A DNA stretch of 64,000 nucleotides from Escherichia coli (GTDB lineage: Bacteria; Pseudomonadota; Gammaproteobacteria; Enterobacterales; Enterobacteriaceae). The notes beneath the pieces were generated by a model, which was not told the DNA's origin, did not search any database, and saw only the letters and a list, made by a program, of their open reading frames with translations. This document shows positions 1 through 27,883 of the stretch, piece after piece (the first letter of the stretch is position 1; every line of letters begins with the position of its first letter). The position numbers and the translations under genes were made by a program. Location: the NCBI RefSeq assembly GCF_030013595.1, contig NZ_CP122768.1; one strand, 5' to 3'.

Positions 1-1233
1 TTCTCTTTTTAAACTGTATGTCTTCTGGATTTCCCACTAACTGACTGAAATCTCCTTTCATAACTCTTTCGCTTGTTTCAAAGAGCTGTATTGCTATCGA
101 GTCGATTAATTCCTTTTTGGACAGAGATGCTTGTTCATAAAATTTGGTGACTAACTCTGTTGGTAACTTTCTTGAGACGACTTTAATGGACAGTCTCTGA
201 AATAGGTAAGGTGCCACCACGCCCACACTGAAAGGGTGAATCCTCCCTGGATTTAATAATTTTATTGTGACGTTTTCAAAAACTAGCTCATTGATTTTAC
301 TATTTATGAATTCCATTAAATACTTATCTAATGATAATGTTACCGACGCAACCGCTTCTATCACTTGTTTAAATGGCTCGCCTTTCAAGGATTTAAAAAA
401 CTCTTTGTTATAACCAAAGAAATCCACAAAACCTAAATTTATTCGATTTTCTTCTTTAGTATTTGAAATGCGAATTTGAAGTTGTTTTAAGTCTTCATCG
501 GTCAAGTATTTTAAACCATAGTCATCAAGCGCGTTACGTATAACTTTATCTGCAGATTCTAAGTCGATTACAGTTTTTACATTAAAAAACAATGATAACA
601 ATGAATCATACTTATGAACTCGCAAGGTTAAATCTGTTGCATTTGATGCGGTTACATTTATACGTCTCAAAAGATCAATAACTTTACTAATTGGTAGGCT
701 GTTTTCAAAAATTTTGAATGACTCGTATTCAGATACAACATCTTTTATATACTTACTGATAGTATGAGACTTTATTTCCACCTCAACTTCGGTTGAGTAA
801 GAATGAATTAGTGAGTTTGTAGTTTCAGCGATGTCATTTGATACATACAACTTATATTCGAAACAATCAGGAGCGGGAAGCAACTATTATCAATAATGGA
901 AAACAATAAAAATTTAATTATTTCTCTTAATGCTTGCGGTCTAGTTATTCTACCTTGCATTTTTTTACATTGTATTAAACCACTTACAACACCGTTATGG
1001 TATAGCACGCAGTCGCGTCCTCTTTCAGAAACTCCTTGCATTAAAGATATTGAGGATATATTTTTATGCTTTCCATCTTCAATTTCGTTCTTTACTAACA
1101 AATAACATAGCAACTCAAATTCTCGATCACCTAATTCTGAAAAGGGAAGCAATCCGATACCAGAATCTATAGTCCATGGTCTATATCCTGATTGAGCCTC
1201 GATATTAATTTGTTCGTCACTGATTTTTTTCAC
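1..1233 (-). pseudogene. Mrr-type PD-(D/E)xK nuclease-domain protein with a long helical C-terminal region; frame broken near 884-887; 3' end lies beyond the window
   Basis: ORF 808..1233 carries a restriction-endonuclease-like core (GDREFELL...RGRDCVL...IQCKK). Hand translation shows a different frame open from 883 down to position 1 (LLPAPDCFEYKLYVSNDIAETT...GNPEDIQFKKR). This looks like one gene split by a 1-nt frame change. Strongly AT-rich. Confidence 0.6.
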
Positions 1234-1548
1234 TTAAATCTCCTTCTAATCTTATTGACCTACTCCCTACATTGTAACAGGGGATGATGATAAGGTGTAT
1301 CTTTCGAGCTATAAGCACGATAAATAAGTGATTAAAAATGACTCTTTAAACTATTTTAATTTAAAAAATTAATTGTTAGTTCTAATTATGGTATGAGGGC
1401 ATTTTCGGCATAGTTCTAACCATATACTTTGGTAAAAATGACTGTTACGGAACAGACCATAGTAATGCCTGCTATTGGCACGGAGCGGGCCGCCTGAGCG
1501 CCGTGGGGTCTGCAAACGGTAAGCATACCGATAACTATACGCTTGGCC

Positions 1549-1968
1549 TTAGTAACTTTTGCTCCCCTCAATAAATCCGCCATCTTTTATCGGACTGCAA
1601 TGTCCTTCTTCATCAATCAGTTGCTCGTCTTTCAGGTAGGTATATCGATAGATAATTGAGCCATTATCCATCTCACCATTGGTTCGTTTCATTAGGAGAG
1701 TAAAATGTAACGGGCTGTCCCTATATCGAGCTATTCCATGAATATTGGCAAGTACCTCATATTGACGCTCAGGTGATAACCCTTTAAATACATCGAGATA
1801 TCCATGGAATGTTCCATAGAGTGAAGAAGTGTAGATCAGTCGCTGCTCTGGACCAGTAACTTTAAGAGTAATTTGTTCACCCGTATTACAGGTTAGCTTG
1901 GCGGGAAATGTCTCAGCCTGAGCAGAAGAAATAGTCAAGCTTAAAATTATCAGGTAGCAATATTTCAT
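1549..1968 (-). CDS. small secreted protein of unknown function
   Basis: Internal ATG at 1968 gives MKYCYLIILSLTISSAQA/ETF, a typical cleavable signal peptide. AT-rich cargo context. The 5' extension of the listed ORF is unlikely to be real. Confidence 0.6.
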   Translation of the reverse strand: MKYCYLIILSLTISSAQAETFPAKLTCNTGEQITLKVTGPEQRLIYTSSLYGTFHGYLDVFKGLSPERQYEVLANIHGIARYRDSPLHFTLLMKRTNGEMDNGSIIYRYTYLKDEQLIDEEGHCSPIKDGGFIEGSKSY

Positions 1969-2376: not shown

Positions 2377-3246
<870 letters not shown>

Positions 3247-3269: not shown

Positions 3270-3305
3270 CGCAGCACGATCTTGCATACGACGTGCTACG
3301 GTTTC
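3270..3305. repeat. hairpin element copy B; probable bidirectional terminator between the GIY-YIG gene and pin
   Basis: cgcagcacgatcttgcatacgacgtgctacggtttc has a 10-bp stem with one mismatch. It abuts the pin stop codon (3304..3306). Confidence 0.6.
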
Positions 3306-3858
3306 ATTTATCTCCGACCGGAAACTTCTTATACAAAGTCGATACACCCACATCGTAGATAATCGCCACCTTCTGGCGAGGAGTTCCTGCTGCAATTAAT
3401 CTTCCGGCTTGTGCCCATTGTTCTGGTGTAAGTTTGGGACGACGTCCACCAATTCGTCCCTGTGCGCGAGCAGCTTCCAGTCCAGCTTTTGTTCGTTCAA
3501 CAATCAGTTCACGCTCCATTTCAGCCAGGGCACCCATCACATGAAAGAAAAAGCGTCCCATTGGTGTGCTGGTATCAATTGAATCCGTCAGACTATGAAA
3601 GTTGATGCCTCGTTCGCGCAACTCCTCCACCAACACGACAAGATGCCGCATACTACGCCCCAGCCGATCCAGCTTCCAGACAACCAGAGTGTCACCTGCC
3701 GATAATGTCCTGAGCAGTTTTTTCAGTCCCGGCCTTTCGGACTTTGTGCCGCTTATCTTGTCTTCAAAAATCAGCTCGCATCCTGCACAGTTCAGCGCAT
3801 TACGTTGTAGATCTGTGTTCTGGTCATTTGTTGATACGCGTACATAGCCAATAAGCAT
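3304..3858 (-). CDS. pin: serine DNA invertase Pin (Hin/Gin/Cin family)
   Basis: MLIGYVRVSTNDQNTDLQRNAL... is near-identical, from memory, to the 184-aa K-12 e14 PinE. The start is taken at the internal ATG (3858). Confidence 0.95.
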   Translation of the reverse strand: MLIGYVRVSTNDQNTDLQRNALNCAGCELIFEDKISGTKSERPGLKKLLRTLSAGDTLVVWKLDRLGRSMRHLVVLVEELRERGINFHSLTDSIDTSTPMGRFFFHVMGALAEMERELIVERTKAGLEAARAQGRIGGRRPKLTPEQWAQAGRLIAAGTPRQKVAIIYDVGVSTLYKKFPVGDK

Positions 3859-3912
3859 GGTAGATCCCCCTGACAAAAGCAGGAATGATGCCATTTGCTC
3901 GTTATTTCTGCA

Positions 3913-3938
3913 TTTTCATAAACGTTGGTTTGGGAGAA
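3913..3938. repeat. invertase crossover site (pix/gix type), left
   Basis: ttttcataaacgttggtttgggagaa is the reverse-complement counterpart of the 5774..5799 site. The AAACC-N2-GGTTT core is typical of Hin-family sites. Confidence 0.85.
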
Positions 3939-4283
3939 GCGGCAAAGAGGAATGTGGGGACAGGAGAAAATCAGGTACCGGATATGAACAGCTTTGGTAA
4001 CTCATTGACCGCCAATGGATACCAGAAATTACCTGGGGGGATGATTATTCAATGGGGGAGTTTTTCTGTCTCACCAACCGGAGGAAGTGTTGGAACAGTT
4101 GATATAACATTACCTGTAGCTTTCCCTGCTGCTTGTCGTTCGGTAAACGCTCTTATTTCAACTAATGATCCTTCTGCCCGTTCTGTGGGCTTTGATATTG
4201 GAAGTACCAACAGAACTAAAATCAGATTTACTTACACTTCTGCTACAACAAATTCAATTTACTGGATGGCTGTGGGGTATTAA
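3939..4283 (+). CDS. alternative tail-fibre C-terminal cassette, silent in the present orientation
   Basis: The frame is open through the left crossover site (..INVGLGEAAKRNVGTGENQ..). Inversion would fuse it to the constant N-terminus ending ..ALENLGLGE. Confidence 0.75.
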   Translation, partial: AAKRNVGTGENQVPDMNSFGNSLTANGYQKLPGGMIIQWGSFSVSPTGGSVGTVDITLPVAFPAACRSVNALISTNDPSARSVGFDIGSTNRTKIRFTYTSATTNSIYWMAVGY

Positions 4284-4285
4284 CT

Positions 4286-4717
4286 ATGGAAAAGACATAT
4301 TATTTTAATCCCTCTGATTCGGGATTTTATATTTCACCAGATAGCCAAACCATTCCTGAGAACGCTACGAAAATAAACTTTACTATTTATTCTGAGTTCG
4401 CAGGAGTTGCATGGCCTGATGGTAAAATACTTGGTTCAGATAAAAATGGTTTTCCAGCATGGCAGGATGCGCCACCACTTACCAGCGAAGAATTAATCTC
4501 AATCGCTGAATCAAATAAACAGCGATTAGTTAATCAGGCCAACGAATACATGAACAGTAAACAATGGCCTGGTAAAGCGGCGATTGGTCGTCTGAAAGGT
4601 GAGGAACTGGCGCAATATAATTTGTGGCTGGATTATCTGGACGCACTGGAACTGGTCGATACTTCCAGTGCGCCAGATATTGAATGGCCTACTCCTCCGG
4701 CAGTTCAGGCCAGATGA
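4286..4717 (+). CDS. alternative tail fibre assembly protein (silent orientation)
   Basis: Directly follows the alternative fibre cassette. The C-terminal motif [13 protein letters not shown] parallels that of the expressed Tfa. Confidence 0.8.
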   Translation: MEKTYYFNPSDSGFYISPDSQTIPENATKINFTIYSEFAGVAWPDGKILGSDKNGFPAWQDAPPLTSEELISIAESNKQRLVNQANEYMNSKQWPGKAAIGRLKGEELAQYNLWLDYLDALELVDTSSAPDIEWPTPPAVQAR

Positions 4718-5294
4718 CATCCGGCGCGGTACTGGTATCTGTTGCCGTCACCGCGTCAATGTAATCCAGCACAGTGTTAAGTCGGGTGGTCTCTGCCTGC
4801 ATCAGCTTCCGCCCGGCCTGCAATTTCAGTTGAATCAGACTAATGGAAGCCATTGCAGTATCAATCAGTGACTGACGTTGTGCTTCTGCCGCGTCTACTG
4901 CGGCGCTATGCTGTGTCTCAGTATCCGTTACCCATTTCTCACCATCCCATTTATCGTATGGCGTTAACGGGGCGATAGTGGTTGTTTTTTCGGGGTAATC
5001 ACCCGGAGTTGTGATTTCTTTGGCGTCTCCCGTTTCGGTGTTATAGACGATTTCACCGCGATGGTCTGGTACATATTCCCATGAGTTAAAATCTGCAGAG
5101 CGGCAGATTGCATAACCAGCTTTGTAGGTGCCTGGAGCATCTAAACAGGAATATGCCGGAATGCCGACACCAACAGCAAGATATTCAGTTGAAGCTGAAA
5201 TATACTCCCGACTCATGACGTCAAAGTTATAAACAGTAATTTCTCCTGCCATAGTGGCAATTAATTCACTGTTTAATTCTGCGTTATTCATCAT
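4689..5294 (-). CDS. tail fibre assembly protein (expressed orientation)
   Basis: Tfa-like sequence ([25 protein letters not shown]...). ATGA overlap with the fibre gene. Confidence 0.85.
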
Positions 5295-6076
5295 GCGGCC
5301 CTCACAATATAATTAAAGGCGATGTTACGTGGACGATTTTCATTTGCTGTTGGAACAACATTTGCCGCCGAGAAGTGAACATCTTGTCGGATTTTTCGGT
5401 CATTAGCGTATGTCATAGACACATTGATGTTATTCCGGACTGAGGTACCTCCGTAAAAAGCTCCACTCACACTTTGAACATCGACAATTGCATTAATTTC
5501 GCTGTTTACGCGCAACTGACCAAAACCGCCAGTAATGTTTCGAATAGCATCTCCTTGCGATGAAAGCAGAGTTCGCCCACTATCCACACCACGTTCATCA
5601 TCCCAGCCACGAATAAACTCACCGCGTAAATCAGGCAATTTATTTGTCGGGTAAGACTTTGCCAGTTCCGGGTATTCTTCAGCAGAAAAAGCCGCACCAT
5701 TGCATTTCAGCCAGCCTGTTGGTGGAGTGGCTGAAGGCCACGGAACAGGCACACCAACGGGTAATGCCGAACCTTCTCCCAAACCAAGGTTTTCGAGAGC
5801 TGTTTTCACCGTGCCATCCGATTTGATATCGCCAAACGGATTCTTGCGGCTTAACAGCAGCGCACGAAGCGCGGTAAGCAGCTGGTCATGCCGCCCCTTC
5901 TCCAGGCTGGCACCGGATGCCTCCACAACGCTGCAAAGCTCCTCCTGCAACATGTCAAAGTAGTCATCATCCAGATCGGTGGCAGGCGTGCCGGTCTGGG
6001 GGTTACCACGGGTAAAACCGTTCTTACCCGCGCCGAACTTATCCTTCTGCGCGGTTTTCGTGTCTATACGATGCAT
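5291..6076 (-). CDS. tail fibre protein (constant N-terminus 5800..6076 plus invertible C-terminus)
   Basis: Ends in [11 protein letters not shown], the same type of terminus as lambda Stf. Contains the crossover site encoding [10 protein letters not shown]. Confidence 0.85.
5774..5799. repeat. invertase crossover site, right (inside the fibre gene)
   Basis: ttctcccaaaccaaggttttcgagag, inverted relative to 3913..3938. Confidence 0.85.
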
Positions 6077-23672: not shown

Positions 23673-24023
23673 TCACTTTAGCCGTTCACGGGCCGTCTTC
23701 GCCTTATGGCACGGCCAGCACAGGCTCTGCAGATTACTGTCTGCATCGGTGCCGCCATGCGCTTTAGGGATGATGTGGTCAACGGTTTTCGCCTCACGCA
23801 CCACACCAGCACGCAGACATAACTGACACAGGCCTTTGTCACGCTTCAATATGCGCGCGCGGATACTGTCCCACTTCGAACCGTAGCCGCGCTGATGACG
23901 GGATTGCCCCGGCTTGTATTGTTTCCAGCCTTCGTTTTTGTGGCTTTCGCAGTAGCCTGACGGGTCTGTAGTGGTATTACGGCAGCCGCGAACGCGGCAG
24001 GCTTTTGGGATTCGTGATGGCAT
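23673..24023 (-). CDS. phage HNH endonuclease (terminase-associated)
   Basis: Motif DHIIPKAHGGTDADSNLQSLCWPCHKAKT. Start at ATG 24023, preceded by GGAG. Confidence 0.85.
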   Translation of the reverse strand: MPSRIPKACRVRGCRNTTTDPSGYCESHKNEGWKQYKPGQSRHQRGYGSKWDSIRARILKRDKGLCQLCLRAGVVREAKTVDHIIPKAHGGTDADSNLQSLCWPCHKAKTARERLK

Positions 24024-24246
24024 ATGTACTCCAATGAAGAAGCCACCGACATAGCCTCCTCCATTCATCGTGAAACTATTTTCATCTACGCAGTCATGAA
24101 TTCTTTGTAGAGTTGTGATCAATACAACTCACTAATGGAGAGGCTTGTCCAACACGTTGGACAAGTTTCCTGTTTGATTTACTGGACACTATAGAAGGAC
24201 AGAATGCCTTCCTCACTCGAATAACATTAATTAAGGAGGTTCAACA

Positions 24247-25575
24247 CTGATGAATCCCCTAATGATTTTGGTAAAAATCATTAAGTTAAGGTGGATACAC
24301 ATCTTGTCATATGATCAAATGGTTTCGCGAAAAATCAATAATCAGACAACAAGATGTGCGAACTCGATATTTTACACGACTCTCTTTACCAATTCTGCCC
24401 CGAATTACACTTAAAACGACTCAACAGCTTAACGTTGGCTTGCCACGCATTACTTGACTGTAAAACTCTCACTCTTACCGAACTTGGCCGTAACCTGCCA
24501 ACCAAAGCGAGAACAAAACATAACATCAAACGAATCGACCGATTGTTAGGTAATCGTCACCTCCACAAAGAGCGACTCGCTGTATACCGTTGGCATGCTA
24601 GCTTTATCTGTTCGGGCAATACGATGCCCATTGTACTTGTTGACTGGTCTGATATTCGTGAGCAAAAACGACTTATGGTATTGCGAGCTTCAGTCGCACT
24701 ACACGGTCGTTCTGTTACTCTTTATGAGAAAGCGTTCCCGCTTTCAGAGCAATGTTCAAAGAAAGCTCATGACCAATTTCTAGCCGACCTTGCGAGCATT
24801 CTACCGAGTAACACCACACCGCTCATTGTCAGTGATGCTGGCTTTAAAGTGCCATGGTATAAATCCGTTGAGAAGCTGGGTTGGTACTGGTTAAGTCGAG
24901 TAAGAGGAAAAGTACAATATGCAGACCTAGGAGCGGAAAACTGGAAACCTATCAGCAACTTACATGATATGTCATCTAGTCACTCAAAGACTTTAGGCTA
25001 TAAGAGGCTGACTAAAAGCAATCCAATCTCATGCCAAATTCTATTGTATAAATCTCGCTCTAAAGGCCGAAAAAATCAGCGCTCGACACGGACTCATTGT
25101 CACCACCCGTCACCTAAAATCTACTCAGCGTCGGCAAAGGAGCCATGGGTTCTAGCAACTAACTTACCTGTTGAAATTCGAACACCCAAACAACTTGTTA
25201 ATATCTATTCGAAGCGAATGCAGATTGAAGAAACCTTCCGAGACTTGAAAAGTCCTGCCTACGGACTAGGCCTACGCCATAGCCGAACGAGCAGCTCAGA
25301 GCGTTTTGATATCATGCTGCTAATCGCCCTGATGCTTCAACTAACATGTTGGCTTGCGGGCGTTCATGCTCAGAAACAAGGTTGGGACAAGCACTTCCAG
25401 GCTAACACAGTCAGAAATCGAAACGTACTCTCAACAGTTCGCTTAGGCATGGAAGTTTTGCGGCATTCTGGCTACACAATAACAAGGGAAGACTTACTCG
25501 TGGCTGCAACCCTACTAGCTCAAAATTTATTCACACATGGTTACGCTTTGGGGAAATTATGAGGGGATCTCTCAG
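24247..25575 (+). mobile_element. IS10, complete (1329 bp)
   Basis: Outside end CTGATGAATCCCCTAATGATTTTGG and inside end ..GGGGAAATTATGAGGGGATCTCTCAG. The flanking 9-mers differ (ggttcaaca versus tattaagcg). Confidence 0.97.
24354..25562 (+). CDS. IS10 transposase
   Basis: 402 aa, MCELDILHDSLYQFCPELHLKRLNS...; ATG at element nt 108. Confidence 0.97.
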   Translation: MCELDILHDSLYQFCPELHLKRLNSLTLACHALLDCKTLTLTELGRNLPTKARTKHNIKRIDRLLGNRHLHKERLAVYRWHASFICSGNTMPIVLVDWSDIREQKRLMVLRASVALHGRSVTLYEKAFPLSEQCSKKAHDQFLADLASILPSNTTPLIVSDAGFKVPWYKSVEKLGWYWLSRVRGKVQYADLGAENWKPISNLHDMSSSHSKTLGYKRLTKSNPISCQILLYKSRSKGRKNQRSTRTHCHHPSPKIYSASAKEPWVLATNLPVEIRTPKQLVNIYSKRMQIEETFRDLKSPAYGLGLRHSRTSSSERFDIMLLIALMLQLTCWLAGVHAQKQGWDKHFQANTVRNRNVLSTVRLGMEVLRHSGYTITREDLLVAATLLAQNLFTHGYALGKL

Positions 25576-26519
25576 TATTAAGCGTCAATGAGCGTCTGGA
25601 AAGAATGAAAGGCAGGCGCTCAGACATTACGGTGACAGAATGGCTTGATAAATATATTTCTATCCAGGAGGACAGGCTGCAACATAATGAACTAAGACCC
25701 AACTCCTATCGGCAAAAAGGCAAACCCATTCGTCTTTTCCGTGAGCATTGTGGAATGCAACACCTCAAGGATATTACCGCACTTGATATTGCCGAAATAA
25801 TTGATGCTGTAAAGGCTGAAGGTCATAACAGGATGGCGCAAGTCGTGAGAATGGTGTTGATCGACGTCTTCAAAGAAGCACAACACGCAGGACATGTTCC
25901 GCCAGGATTTAACCCAGCGCAGGCAACAAAACAACCGCGAAATCGAGTAAACCGCCAAAGATTGTCACTGCCCGAATGGCAGGCAATATTTGAAAGCGTA
26001 AGCAGACGGCAGCCCTATTTAAAATGCGGCATGCTACTTGCTCTTGTTACTGGACAACGTTTAGGCGATATCTGCAATTTGAAATTCTCTGATATATGGG
26101 ACGACATGTTGCACATTACTCAGGAAAAAACCGGTTCAAAACTTGCTATTCCGCTTAACCTGAAATGCGATGCTCTGAATATTACCCTTCGTGAAGTTAT
26201 ATCTCAGTGCAGGGATGCTGTTGTTAGTAAATATCTGGTCCATTACCGTCACACTACCTCTCAAGCAAACAGAGGAGACCAGGTTTCTGCAAATACTCTG
26301 ACAACGGCTTTTAAAAAGGCCCGGGAAAAATGTGGCATAAAATGGGAGCAAGGAACTGCGCCCACATTTCATGAGCAGCGATCTCTGTCAGAACGGTTAT
26401 ATCGGGAACAGGGTCTGGATACGCAAAAGTTGTTAGGCCATAAATCCAGAAAAATGACCGACCGATACAATGATGATCGTGGTAAAGACTGGATTATCGT
26501 AGATATCAAAACAGCATAG
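25576..26519 (+). pseudogene. lambda-family tyrosine integrase lacking the N-terminal arm-binding domain (cut by IS10)
   Basis: Aligns to lambda Int from about residue 60 (ITVTEWLDKY versus VTLHSWLDRY) to the end (HELRSL..LLGH..Y). The frame is open up to the IS10 junction. Confidence 0.85.
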
Positions 26520-26632: not shown

Positions 26633-27883
26633 TTACATGTTCTTGATGATTGCATCACCAAACTCGCTGCATTTCAGCAGTTTAGCACCTTCCATCAGAC
26701 GTTCGAAGTCATAGGTTACGGTCTTGGCGTTGATTGCGCCTTCCATACCTTTAACAATCAAGTCTGCGGCTTCAGTCCAGCCCATATGGCGCAGCATCAT
26801 CTCAGCGGAGAGAATAATAGAGCCTGGGTTTACTTTGTCCTGACCGGCATATTTCGGCGCAGTACCGTGGGTGGCTTCAAACAGGGCGCATTCGTCACCG
26901 ATGTTTGCGCCTGGGGCGATACCGATACCGCCGACCTGTGCAGCCAGAGCGTCAGAAATGTAGTCACCGTTCAGGTTCATACAGGCGATAACATCATATT
27001 CAGCCGGACGCAGCAGGATCTGTTGCAGGAATGCGTCAGCAATCACGTCTTTAATGACGATCTCTTTGCCGGTATTCGGGTTTTTAACTTTCAGCCACGG
27101 GCCGCCGTCGATCAGTTCACCGCCAAACTCTTCACGCGCCAGCTGGTAGCCCCAGTCTTTAAACGCGCCTTCGGTGAACTTCATGATGTTGCCTTTGTGC
27201 ACCAGGGTCACAGAGTCACGATCGTTAGCAATTGCGTATTCGATCGCTGCACGAACCAGACGTTTGGTGCCTTCTTCCGAACACGGCTTAATACCGATAC
27301 CGCAATGTTCCGGGAAGCGAATTTTCTTCACGCCCATCTCTTCACGCAGGAATTTAATCACTTTCTCGGCGTCGGCAGAGTCAGCTTTCCATTCGATACC
27401 CGCATAAATGTCTTCCGAGTTTTCACGGAAGATAACCATATCGGTCAGTTCAGGGTGTTTAACCGGGCTTGGAGTGCCCTGATAGTAACGTACCGGACGC
27501 AGGCAGATGTAGAGATCCAGTTCCTGACGCAGGGCAACGTTCAGAGAGCGAATACCGCCACCAACCGGAGTGGTCAGCGGACCTTTAATGGCAACGCGAT
27601 ATTCACGAATCAGATCAAGGGTTTCAGCAGGCAGCCAGACATCCTGACCATAAACCTGTGTGGATTTTTCACCGGTGTAAATTTCCATCCAGGAGATTTT
27701 ACGCTCGCCTTTATAGGCTTTCTCGACTGCAGCGTCGACCACTTTCAGCATGGCTGGGGTTACATCTACACCGATTCCATCACCTTCAATGTAAGGGATA
27801 ATCGGATTTTCAGGAACGTTGAGTTTGCCGTTTTGCAGGGTGATCTTCTTGCCTTGTGCCGGAACAACTACTTTACTTTCCAT
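26633..27883 (-). CDS. icd: isocitrate dehydrogenase (NADP)
   Basis: Full-length 416-aa match to E. coli Icd. The C-terminus reads ..[14 protein letters not shown]. Confidence 0.98.

Follow-up and report, generated by a model that had tools for sequence, protein, structure and literature searches.

A frameshifted Mrr-type nuclease gene at the cargo end of an e14-family Escherichia coli prophage, and its family of candidate stand-alone defence nucleases

The 64,000-nucleotide (nt) stretch of Escherichia coli DNA analysed here (contig NZ_CP122768.1 of assembly GCF_030013595.1; hereafter the window) opens, on its minus strand, with a broken gene at the cargo end of an e14-type prophage. The intact form of this gene encodes a protein of 488 amino acids (aa), in which an N-terminal nuclease of the Mrr type is followed by a long helical domain, and it belongs to a conserved family that stands alone, with no partner gene. 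On balance we consider it likely that the intact protein is a stand-alone defence nuclease, regulated by its helical domain and activated by oligomerisation, and that the copy in the window is a pseudogene inherited within its lineage.

Translation of positions 1-1300 of the window places the two parts of the gene in different frames. The first frame, read on the minus strand from a GTG codon at 1231-1233, runs MKKISDEQ...GDREFELL...ERGRDCVLY...IQCKK...FSIIDNS, then continues through 24 unrelated residues to a stop codon at 808-810; the second, LLPAPDCFEYKLYV...FKKR, starts with LLPAPDCFEY just past three stop codons and stays open for 294 codons to base 1. Alignment with the intact E. coli allele reveals a single missing T in the run AGT-TTG (gene nt 351-353, codons S117 and L118), one to three bases from the 884-887 given in the original prediction, which had been made from the letters of the window without any database search. 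Deletion apart, the gene is 99.7% identical to the genes encoding WP_000723924.1, and the only other differences between the window copy and the intact allele are D157H and two synonymous changes. The parts of the gene can be listed as follows.

1..1233, minus strand: pseudogene of the Mrr-nuclease/helical-domain protein; the last 77 codons and the stop (234 nt) lie left of the window edge, and the intact allele encodes 488 aa.
1240..1245, minus strand: Shine-Dalgarno sequence AAGGAG, read from the sequence, 6 nt before the GTG at 1231-1233; relatives are annotated with the same start.
883..1233, minus strand: codons 1-117, the Mrr-type PD-(D/E)xK nuclease core, with E40 at 1114-1116, D74 at 1012-1014 and Q88-C89-K90 at 964-972.
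882..883, minus strand: site of the 1-nt deletion, TT here against TTT in intact alleles, at the boundary of codons 117 and 118.
808..810, minus strand: premature stop in the shifted frame, giving a predicted product of 141 aa (117 native and 24 out-of-frame residues).
523..882, minus strand: codons 118-237, out of frame, the alpha/beta-helical subdomain that follows the nuclease core.
1..504, minus strand: codons ~243-411, out of frame, the first two thirds of the family-specific helical C-terminal domain.

The catalytic residues E40, D74 and Q88-C89-K90 all lie in the part that is still in frame. The 141-aa product stops after the fourth strand of the core and a helix, and since the fifth strand, the subdomain and the helical domain are absent from it, activity is very unlikely. 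The window copy is dead: the loss of one T at the codon 117/118 boundary cuts the catalytic core from all that lies downstream. A promoter and terminator scan of positions 1-2500 returned fewer sites than shuffled sequence, and we draw no claim about transcription from it.

Does the break belong to the strain or to its assembly? The exact frameshift product, including its out-of-frame tail, occurs in 42 blocks of the assembly collection, and the 23 contigs inspected (at least 23 carry the exact product) come both from NCBI genomes and from independently assembled runs of the Sequence Read Archive. Across 3.3-3.9 kb, two of these loci match the window with 100% identity, and the remaining loci are 99.6-99.98% identical. 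Because the same product recurs in many independent assemblies, the deletion is not a one-off sequencing error, and of the two explanations first offered for the break it is inactivation that holds. That the gene is intact in this strain and was broken by sequencing or assembly would suit a change of a single base in a short homopolymer, but it fits poorly with so many assemblies whose flanks are 99.6-100% identical to the window, and with the icd, purB, phoP and phoQ open reading frames (ORFs) of the window, which have their normal full lengths; its chances are very slim. Negligible, finally, is the idea that each frame is a gene of its own, or that programmed ribosomal frameshifting joins them, for while a TTG does follow three stop codons where the second frame starts, every relative has one continuous ORF and no two-frame layout, there is neither a slippery heptamer at 880-890 nor a Shine-Dalgarno sequence ahead of the TTG, and other E. 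coli copies are broken elsewhere in the gene.

Since relatives share a single ORF of ~485 aa, the two halves are not separate conserved genes, as had at first been allowed for, and the term 'fusion gene' applied to them is slightly misleading: the protein is conserved in both its parts rather than being the product of a recent fusion. Both the structure of the gene and its status in the window, as an ordinary pseudogene inherited within the lineage, can be taken as established beyond reasonable doubt.

By megablast, 29 of 5,426 complete E. coli genomes carry the gene stretch, their copies being 99.2-99.7% identical to it. The intact E. coli form is annotated as a single coding sequence of 1,467 nt, whose product (WP_000723924.1, 488 aa) is named 'hypothetical protein'. 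In these few carriers the gene has been disrupted independently at least four more times.

Strain B1S11: 1-nt deletion in the A-run of K90-K91.
Strain 1297KP: nonsense change Y243*, together with D157G.
Strain PD7: insertion of the insertion sequence IS1 and loss of nt 169-1028 (an 860-nt deletion).
Strain ECONIH5: truncated copy.

Codon 157 is thus variable in two of the broken alleles, as D157H in the window and as D157G in 1297KP.

Beyond E. coli, a search of 5.8 billion proteins gathered 120 clusters of relatives, nearly all of 482-495 aa and collinear with the query over 97-100% of its length. They come from Enterobacterales, Pseudomonas, Acinetobacter, Vibrio, Burkholderia and Bacteroidota, to which the genome loci of the family add Campylobacterota and Syntrophaceae. 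In an alignment of 38 members (down to 31% identity), E40, D74, Q88, C89 and K90 are invariant, in the motifs GDREFE, ERGRDC and QCK, which bears out the PD-(D/E)xK core proposed for the N-terminal domain. This E...D...QxK arrangement is that of an Mrr-type catalytic site, and the domain has the alpha-beta-beta-beta-alpha-beta core fold of restriction endonucleases; the likenesses listed for it include the nuclease domains of AspBHI and MspJI (8.6 and 8.3, respectively). The Pfam family Mrr_cat (PF04471) matches 8 of the 38 members, with a best E-value of 5.7e-6, and leaves the E. coli protein itself unmatched. The PADLOC model of LmuA, the effector of Lamassu systems (PDLC03852), matches 31 of the 38 (best E-value 2.1e-9), aligning aa 36-181 with profile positions 20-167 of 336. 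LmuA chains are also the top matches of the whole chain when Foldseek is run against the PDB, with probabilities of 0.95-0.97. Taken as a nuclease, then, the protein is almost certainly a member of the Mrr-type PD-(D/E)xK superfamily.

Searched alone against Pfam, NCBIfam, PHROGs and the sequences of the PDB, the E. coli protein retrieved nothing significant, and the family profile drew only chance-level matches from PDB sequences. A weak Pfam match to 2CompART and PADLOC matches to WYL (E-values of 0.002-0.04) were set aside as chance-level in helical sequence. The family is without a name in Pfam 2025, NCBIfam 2026, PHROGs v4, PADLOC v2.0 and PDB 2026, as far as these libraries show. WP_000723924 was found neither in a full-text literature search nor in the supplementary tables of the DefensePredictor paper, and no relevant literature was found on the e14 hotspot or on stand-alone LmuA.

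A profile of aa 117-488 was then the means of asking where the remainder of the protein recurs. It collects 287 proteins among 1.84 billion representatives, with E-values below 1e-30 for 58 representatives at 50% identity. The match of proteins of 600-1365 aa is confined to positions 1-120 of the profile (aa 117-237) and always falls at their own residues ~118-235; these proteins carry NACHT, NB-ARC or nSTAND3 with TPR, HD-CE with HATPase_c_3, or TPR with PIN. At their N-termini these long proteins have the nuclease core as well, and QCK stands where it does in the family (E-values of 1e-13 to 1e-42). As aa 117-237 recur after the same nuclease core in STAND/NACHT proteins, aa 1-237 form a complete effector module that NLR-like immune proteins also use. 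Such sharing is in line with a remark in the literature that Mrr and Cap4 effectors are shared by Lamassu and Avs systems (PMC12663957). The likeness to Avs4-like and bNACHT STAND proteins is confined to this N-terminal module: the family, at 488 aa, has a helical domain of 245 aa in place of the central STAND nucleoside triphosphatase (NTPase) and the C-terminal TPR or other repeat sensor, and no member has a Pfam match to an NTPase or TPR family.

What, then, is the helical domain? Residues ~243-488 are all-helical and open with the strongly conserved LTDxDLKxLQxRI...RxxLGxVDFFGY. An AlphaFold2 model supports the helical nature of the C-terminal part, in keeping with the more than 290 aa of helical sequence first described as running past the window edge, where the gene does continue. 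No Pfam family matches aa 240-488, either in the E. coli protein or in the 38 members, and for aa ~243-488 we found no solved structural relative and no SRA-domain, winged-helix or other known DNA-reader fold. In two metagenomic representatives the helical domain stands behind other N-termini. That of P0255 (locus L016, 1996-3327) is 40% identical to the N-terminus of a protein that passes the DUF4062 threshold, a PDB sequence match of the same region having been discarded as a spurious coiled-coil; that of P0167 is a helical region of 198 aa, of another type. Together, these two proteins hint at effector swapping. A sub-branch of 692-740 aa (P0208, P0226, P0256 and P0260) is longer at the C-terminus by ~250 aa, a stretch that matches no Pfam family apart from a weak KOW-like hit in P0208. 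We would tentatively entertain the possibility that aa ~243-488 constitute an undescribed module for infection sensing and oligomerisation, and that the family is a new group of single-protein immune effectors with exchangeable N-termini, mostly Mrr nucleases and in a few cases DUF4062-related or other domains; if true, such a protein would amount to an effector of the LmuA kind that does without the SMC sensor.

The family stands alone. When the ORFs within 4 kb of the gene were clustered across 22 loci from diverse taxa, no neighbour family appeared in more than three of them, and the one that reached three contains a Pfam Phage_integrase gene. No LmuB, LmuC, HerA or helicase partner adjoins the gene in the loci examined: there is no conserved partner, and this is a single-gene family. 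The original prediction had looked for possible partner genes to the left of the window, where the gene itself takes up 234 nt and only 508 nt of non-coding DNA separate it from the icd' remnant described below. The surroundings themselves are mobile and often defensive. In Enterobacter and Pseudomonas the gene lies inside or beside P2-like prophage gene clusters, an Acinetobacter member lies in a PAAR/umuDC region, and small integrase islands also host family members. On a Bacteroidota contig (L042, 1-17467) the gene belongs to a conjugative element, ~4 kb from a Gabija-like pair (an AAA_15/OLD-like TOPRIM protein and a UvrD helicase), and on the other side it is flanked by a second defence-type locus, which combines a group II intron reverse transcriptase with an N6-methyltransferase/Eco57I/helicase protein of 1,508 aa. 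On plasmids, a tblastn search found only the E. coli copy and one Agrobacterium gene of 25% identity.

We posit that the intact protein could provide single-gene defence against phages or other mobile elements. The helical domain would keep the nuclease monomeric and inactive until an infection cue leads it to drive oligomerisation, and the oligomer would bring the nuclease domains together to cut DNA, as in the tetramers of LmuA and Avs. Avs-type proteins with the same effector work as tetramers. A defence role for the intact family is, in our judgement, quite likely, given the effector module and the contexts described; the oligomerisation step, for which the analogy is with these two systems, is possible and somewhat more doubtful than not. 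In LmuA, activation comes about by tetramerisation via the C-terminal domain (bioRxiv 10.1101/2025.06.23.660979).

Several observations weigh against this proposal. The Foldseek likeness to whole LmuA is weak (E-value ~1e-3, TM-score 0.22-0.30), and neither Pfam, NCBIfam and PHROGs nor, by sequence, the PDB contains the family, its PADLOC v2 match being to the N-terminal part of the LmuA model only. No family member turned up by tblastn in 50,697 phage records, and no experiment on any family member was found. The idea of effector swapping comes from two representative sequences, and the four or more other disrupted E. coli copies could mean plain prophage decay and not a cost of the gene.

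Could the intact protein instead be a Type IV modification-dependent endonuclease, with a helical domain that reads modified phage DNA and an Mrr domain that cuts it, the host being spared, so that the gene would be a replacement for McrA? Its position invites the thought, since the gene sits in the e14 slot that holds mcrA in K-12 and adjoins PD-T4-3, which is active on T-even phages; so does the likeness to MspJI and AspBHI, with which, as with Mrr, it shares the catalytic fold and the E...D...QxK motif. However, the domain order is the reverse of that in these Type IV enzymes, the nuclease coming first, and the C-terminal domain has no recognisable modified-DNA reader, whether SRA, winged-helix or another known fold. 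McrA itself, although found at the same pin-to-attR position in e14-family prophages, is an HNH enzyme and unrelated in sequence. Moreover, the 237-aa N-terminal module is that of STAND/NACHT proteins and meets the LmuA model, and those systems are activated by oligomerisation and cut without specificity, whilst a helical domain that can also follow N-termini other than a nuclease is more what one would expect of a regulator than of a DNA reader. We regard a Type IV enzyme as unlikely.

Less probable again is a role outside defence, either as a toxin for the maintenance of a prophage or mobile element, or as the element's own DNA-processing nuclease. In favour of it, the gene is always on or beside mobile elements and has been inactivated repeatedly in E. 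coli. Yet no conserved antitoxin-like neighbour accompanies it, and its elements are very different (e14-like and P2-like prophages, a conjugative element, integrase islets), with the gene in variable cargo positions and not in their core modules; that immune STAND proteins use the same effector module argues in the same direction.

A third possibility, that the protein is the LmuA of a Lamassu system in need of LmuB (and LmuC), encoded next to it or elsewhere, we consider very improbable. The family has an LmuA-related N-terminal effector, as the PADLOC model matches and the top Foldseek matches indicate (PDB 9hr5, 9nxx and 9ux8), and, like the Mrr/Cap4-nuclease type of LmuA, it follows an N-terminal PD-(D/E)xK nuclease with a helical C-terminal domain. 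However, the profile match is limited to the nuclease region, past which the sequence likeness ends; the C-terminal domain is ~100 residues longer than that of LmuA and matches no ABC-3C C-terminal-domain family of Pfam; and neither an operonic LmuB nor an LmuC accompanies any locus examined. No SMC/ABC ATPase gene adjoins the gene in the listed loci, and with no conserved neighbour family in the 22 loci, the nearest AAA_15/AAA_23-type genes belong elsewhere, to a reverse-transcriptase-linked ATPase and to OLD/Gabija-type genes. The same holds for HerA-DUF4297 and for Hachiman (AbpA/HamA), which act with an adjacent HerA ATPase or HamB/AbpB helicase: the family loci examined have neither, and Pfam DUF4297 is unmatched. 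The reading of the intact protein as a probable stand-alone defence nuclease is the one that we retain.

The locus in which the broken copy resides can be described in some detail. The first 24 kb of the window is a prophage with an e14-type gene order: packaging, tail, baseplate, ymfQ, invertible tail-fibre genes, pin invertase and cargo. The icd' attachment remnant (icdC of K-12) starts 508 nt past the stop of the nuclease gene, as read from a contig with an identical allele, so that left of the window there follow in turn the 234 nt of the gene, non-coding DNA and the remnant. The gene therefore occupies the pin-to-attR end of an e14-family prophage, adjoining a validated defence gene, as the original assignment to a prophage cargo end had it. 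Its AT-richness, too, stands up: G+C is 33% at 1-1500 against 54-59% in the baseplate genes of the prophage. This low G+C and the presence in 29 of 5,426 genomes are signs of foreign, dispensable cargo. Besides the nuclease gene, the slot holds two genes, and the invertase borders it.

1549..1968, minus strand: hypothetical protein of 139 aa (WP_001333214.1), 315 nt upstream of the nuclease gene, on the same strand; the hydrophobic N-terminus of the protein resembles a signal peptide (MKYCYLIILSLTISSAQA).
2473..3246, plus strand: PD-T4-3, a single-gene GIY-YIG anti-phage system, intact and divergent from the nuclease gene.
3304..3858, minus strand: Pin-type serine invertase, at the border of the tail-fibre module and the cargo slot.

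The 139-aa protein has no family match, and as a candidate partner it was rejected, its linkage to the nuclease gene being found only in E. coli in the 22-locus comparison. The PD-T4-3 gene, on the strand opposite to the other two genes of the slot, matches its PADLOC model with an E-value of 2.3e-140 over 255 of 256 profile positions, and Pfam LEM-3_GIY-YIG with 2.4e-14; PD-T4-3 is a validated single-gene GIY-YIG defence against T-even phages (bioRxiv 10.1101/2024.12.20.629700). In K-12, e14 has the order pinE-mcrA-icdC. With mcrA there, and PD-T4-3 and the nuclease gene here, e14-family prophages seem to exchange defence cargo at their pin-to-attR slot. In other strains the cargo end abuts a LysR fragment and paoD, or IS66.

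Further into the prophage, the pin invertase lies beside opposed sets of tail-fibre and tail-fibre-assembly genes, at 3885-4717 on the plus strand and 4689-6076 on the minus strand; the segment 3304-5294 looks like an invertible host-range segment, and in relatives the tail-fibre segment occurs in both orientations or with different fibre genes. At its far end, on the icd side (23673-26519), the genes for an HNH endonuclease and the terminase directly adjoin an IS4-family (DDE_Tnp_1) transposase; a truncated integrase of 304 aa comes next, adjoining icd (26633-27883). The early/lysogeny region is gone, and the prophage is therefore cryptic. A second prophage-like block lies at ~39600-64000, where the annotation of matching E. 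coli records includes genes for tail sheath, tail fibre, tail-collar and 'phage tail protein I'.

For this genome the finding means very little: a dead gene in a cryptic prophage, to be annotated as a pseudogene. Single-gene PD-(D/E)xK defence candidates are, moreover, common. The intact family is nonetheless a clean and testable single-gene defence candidate, unnamed as far as the libraries searched show, and it joins an immune effector that is well understood (the Mrr module found in Avs-like proteins and Lamassu) to a helical domain that has no structural relatives. How that helical domain controls the nuclease would show how an effector can be regulated without an NTPase or SMC sensor.

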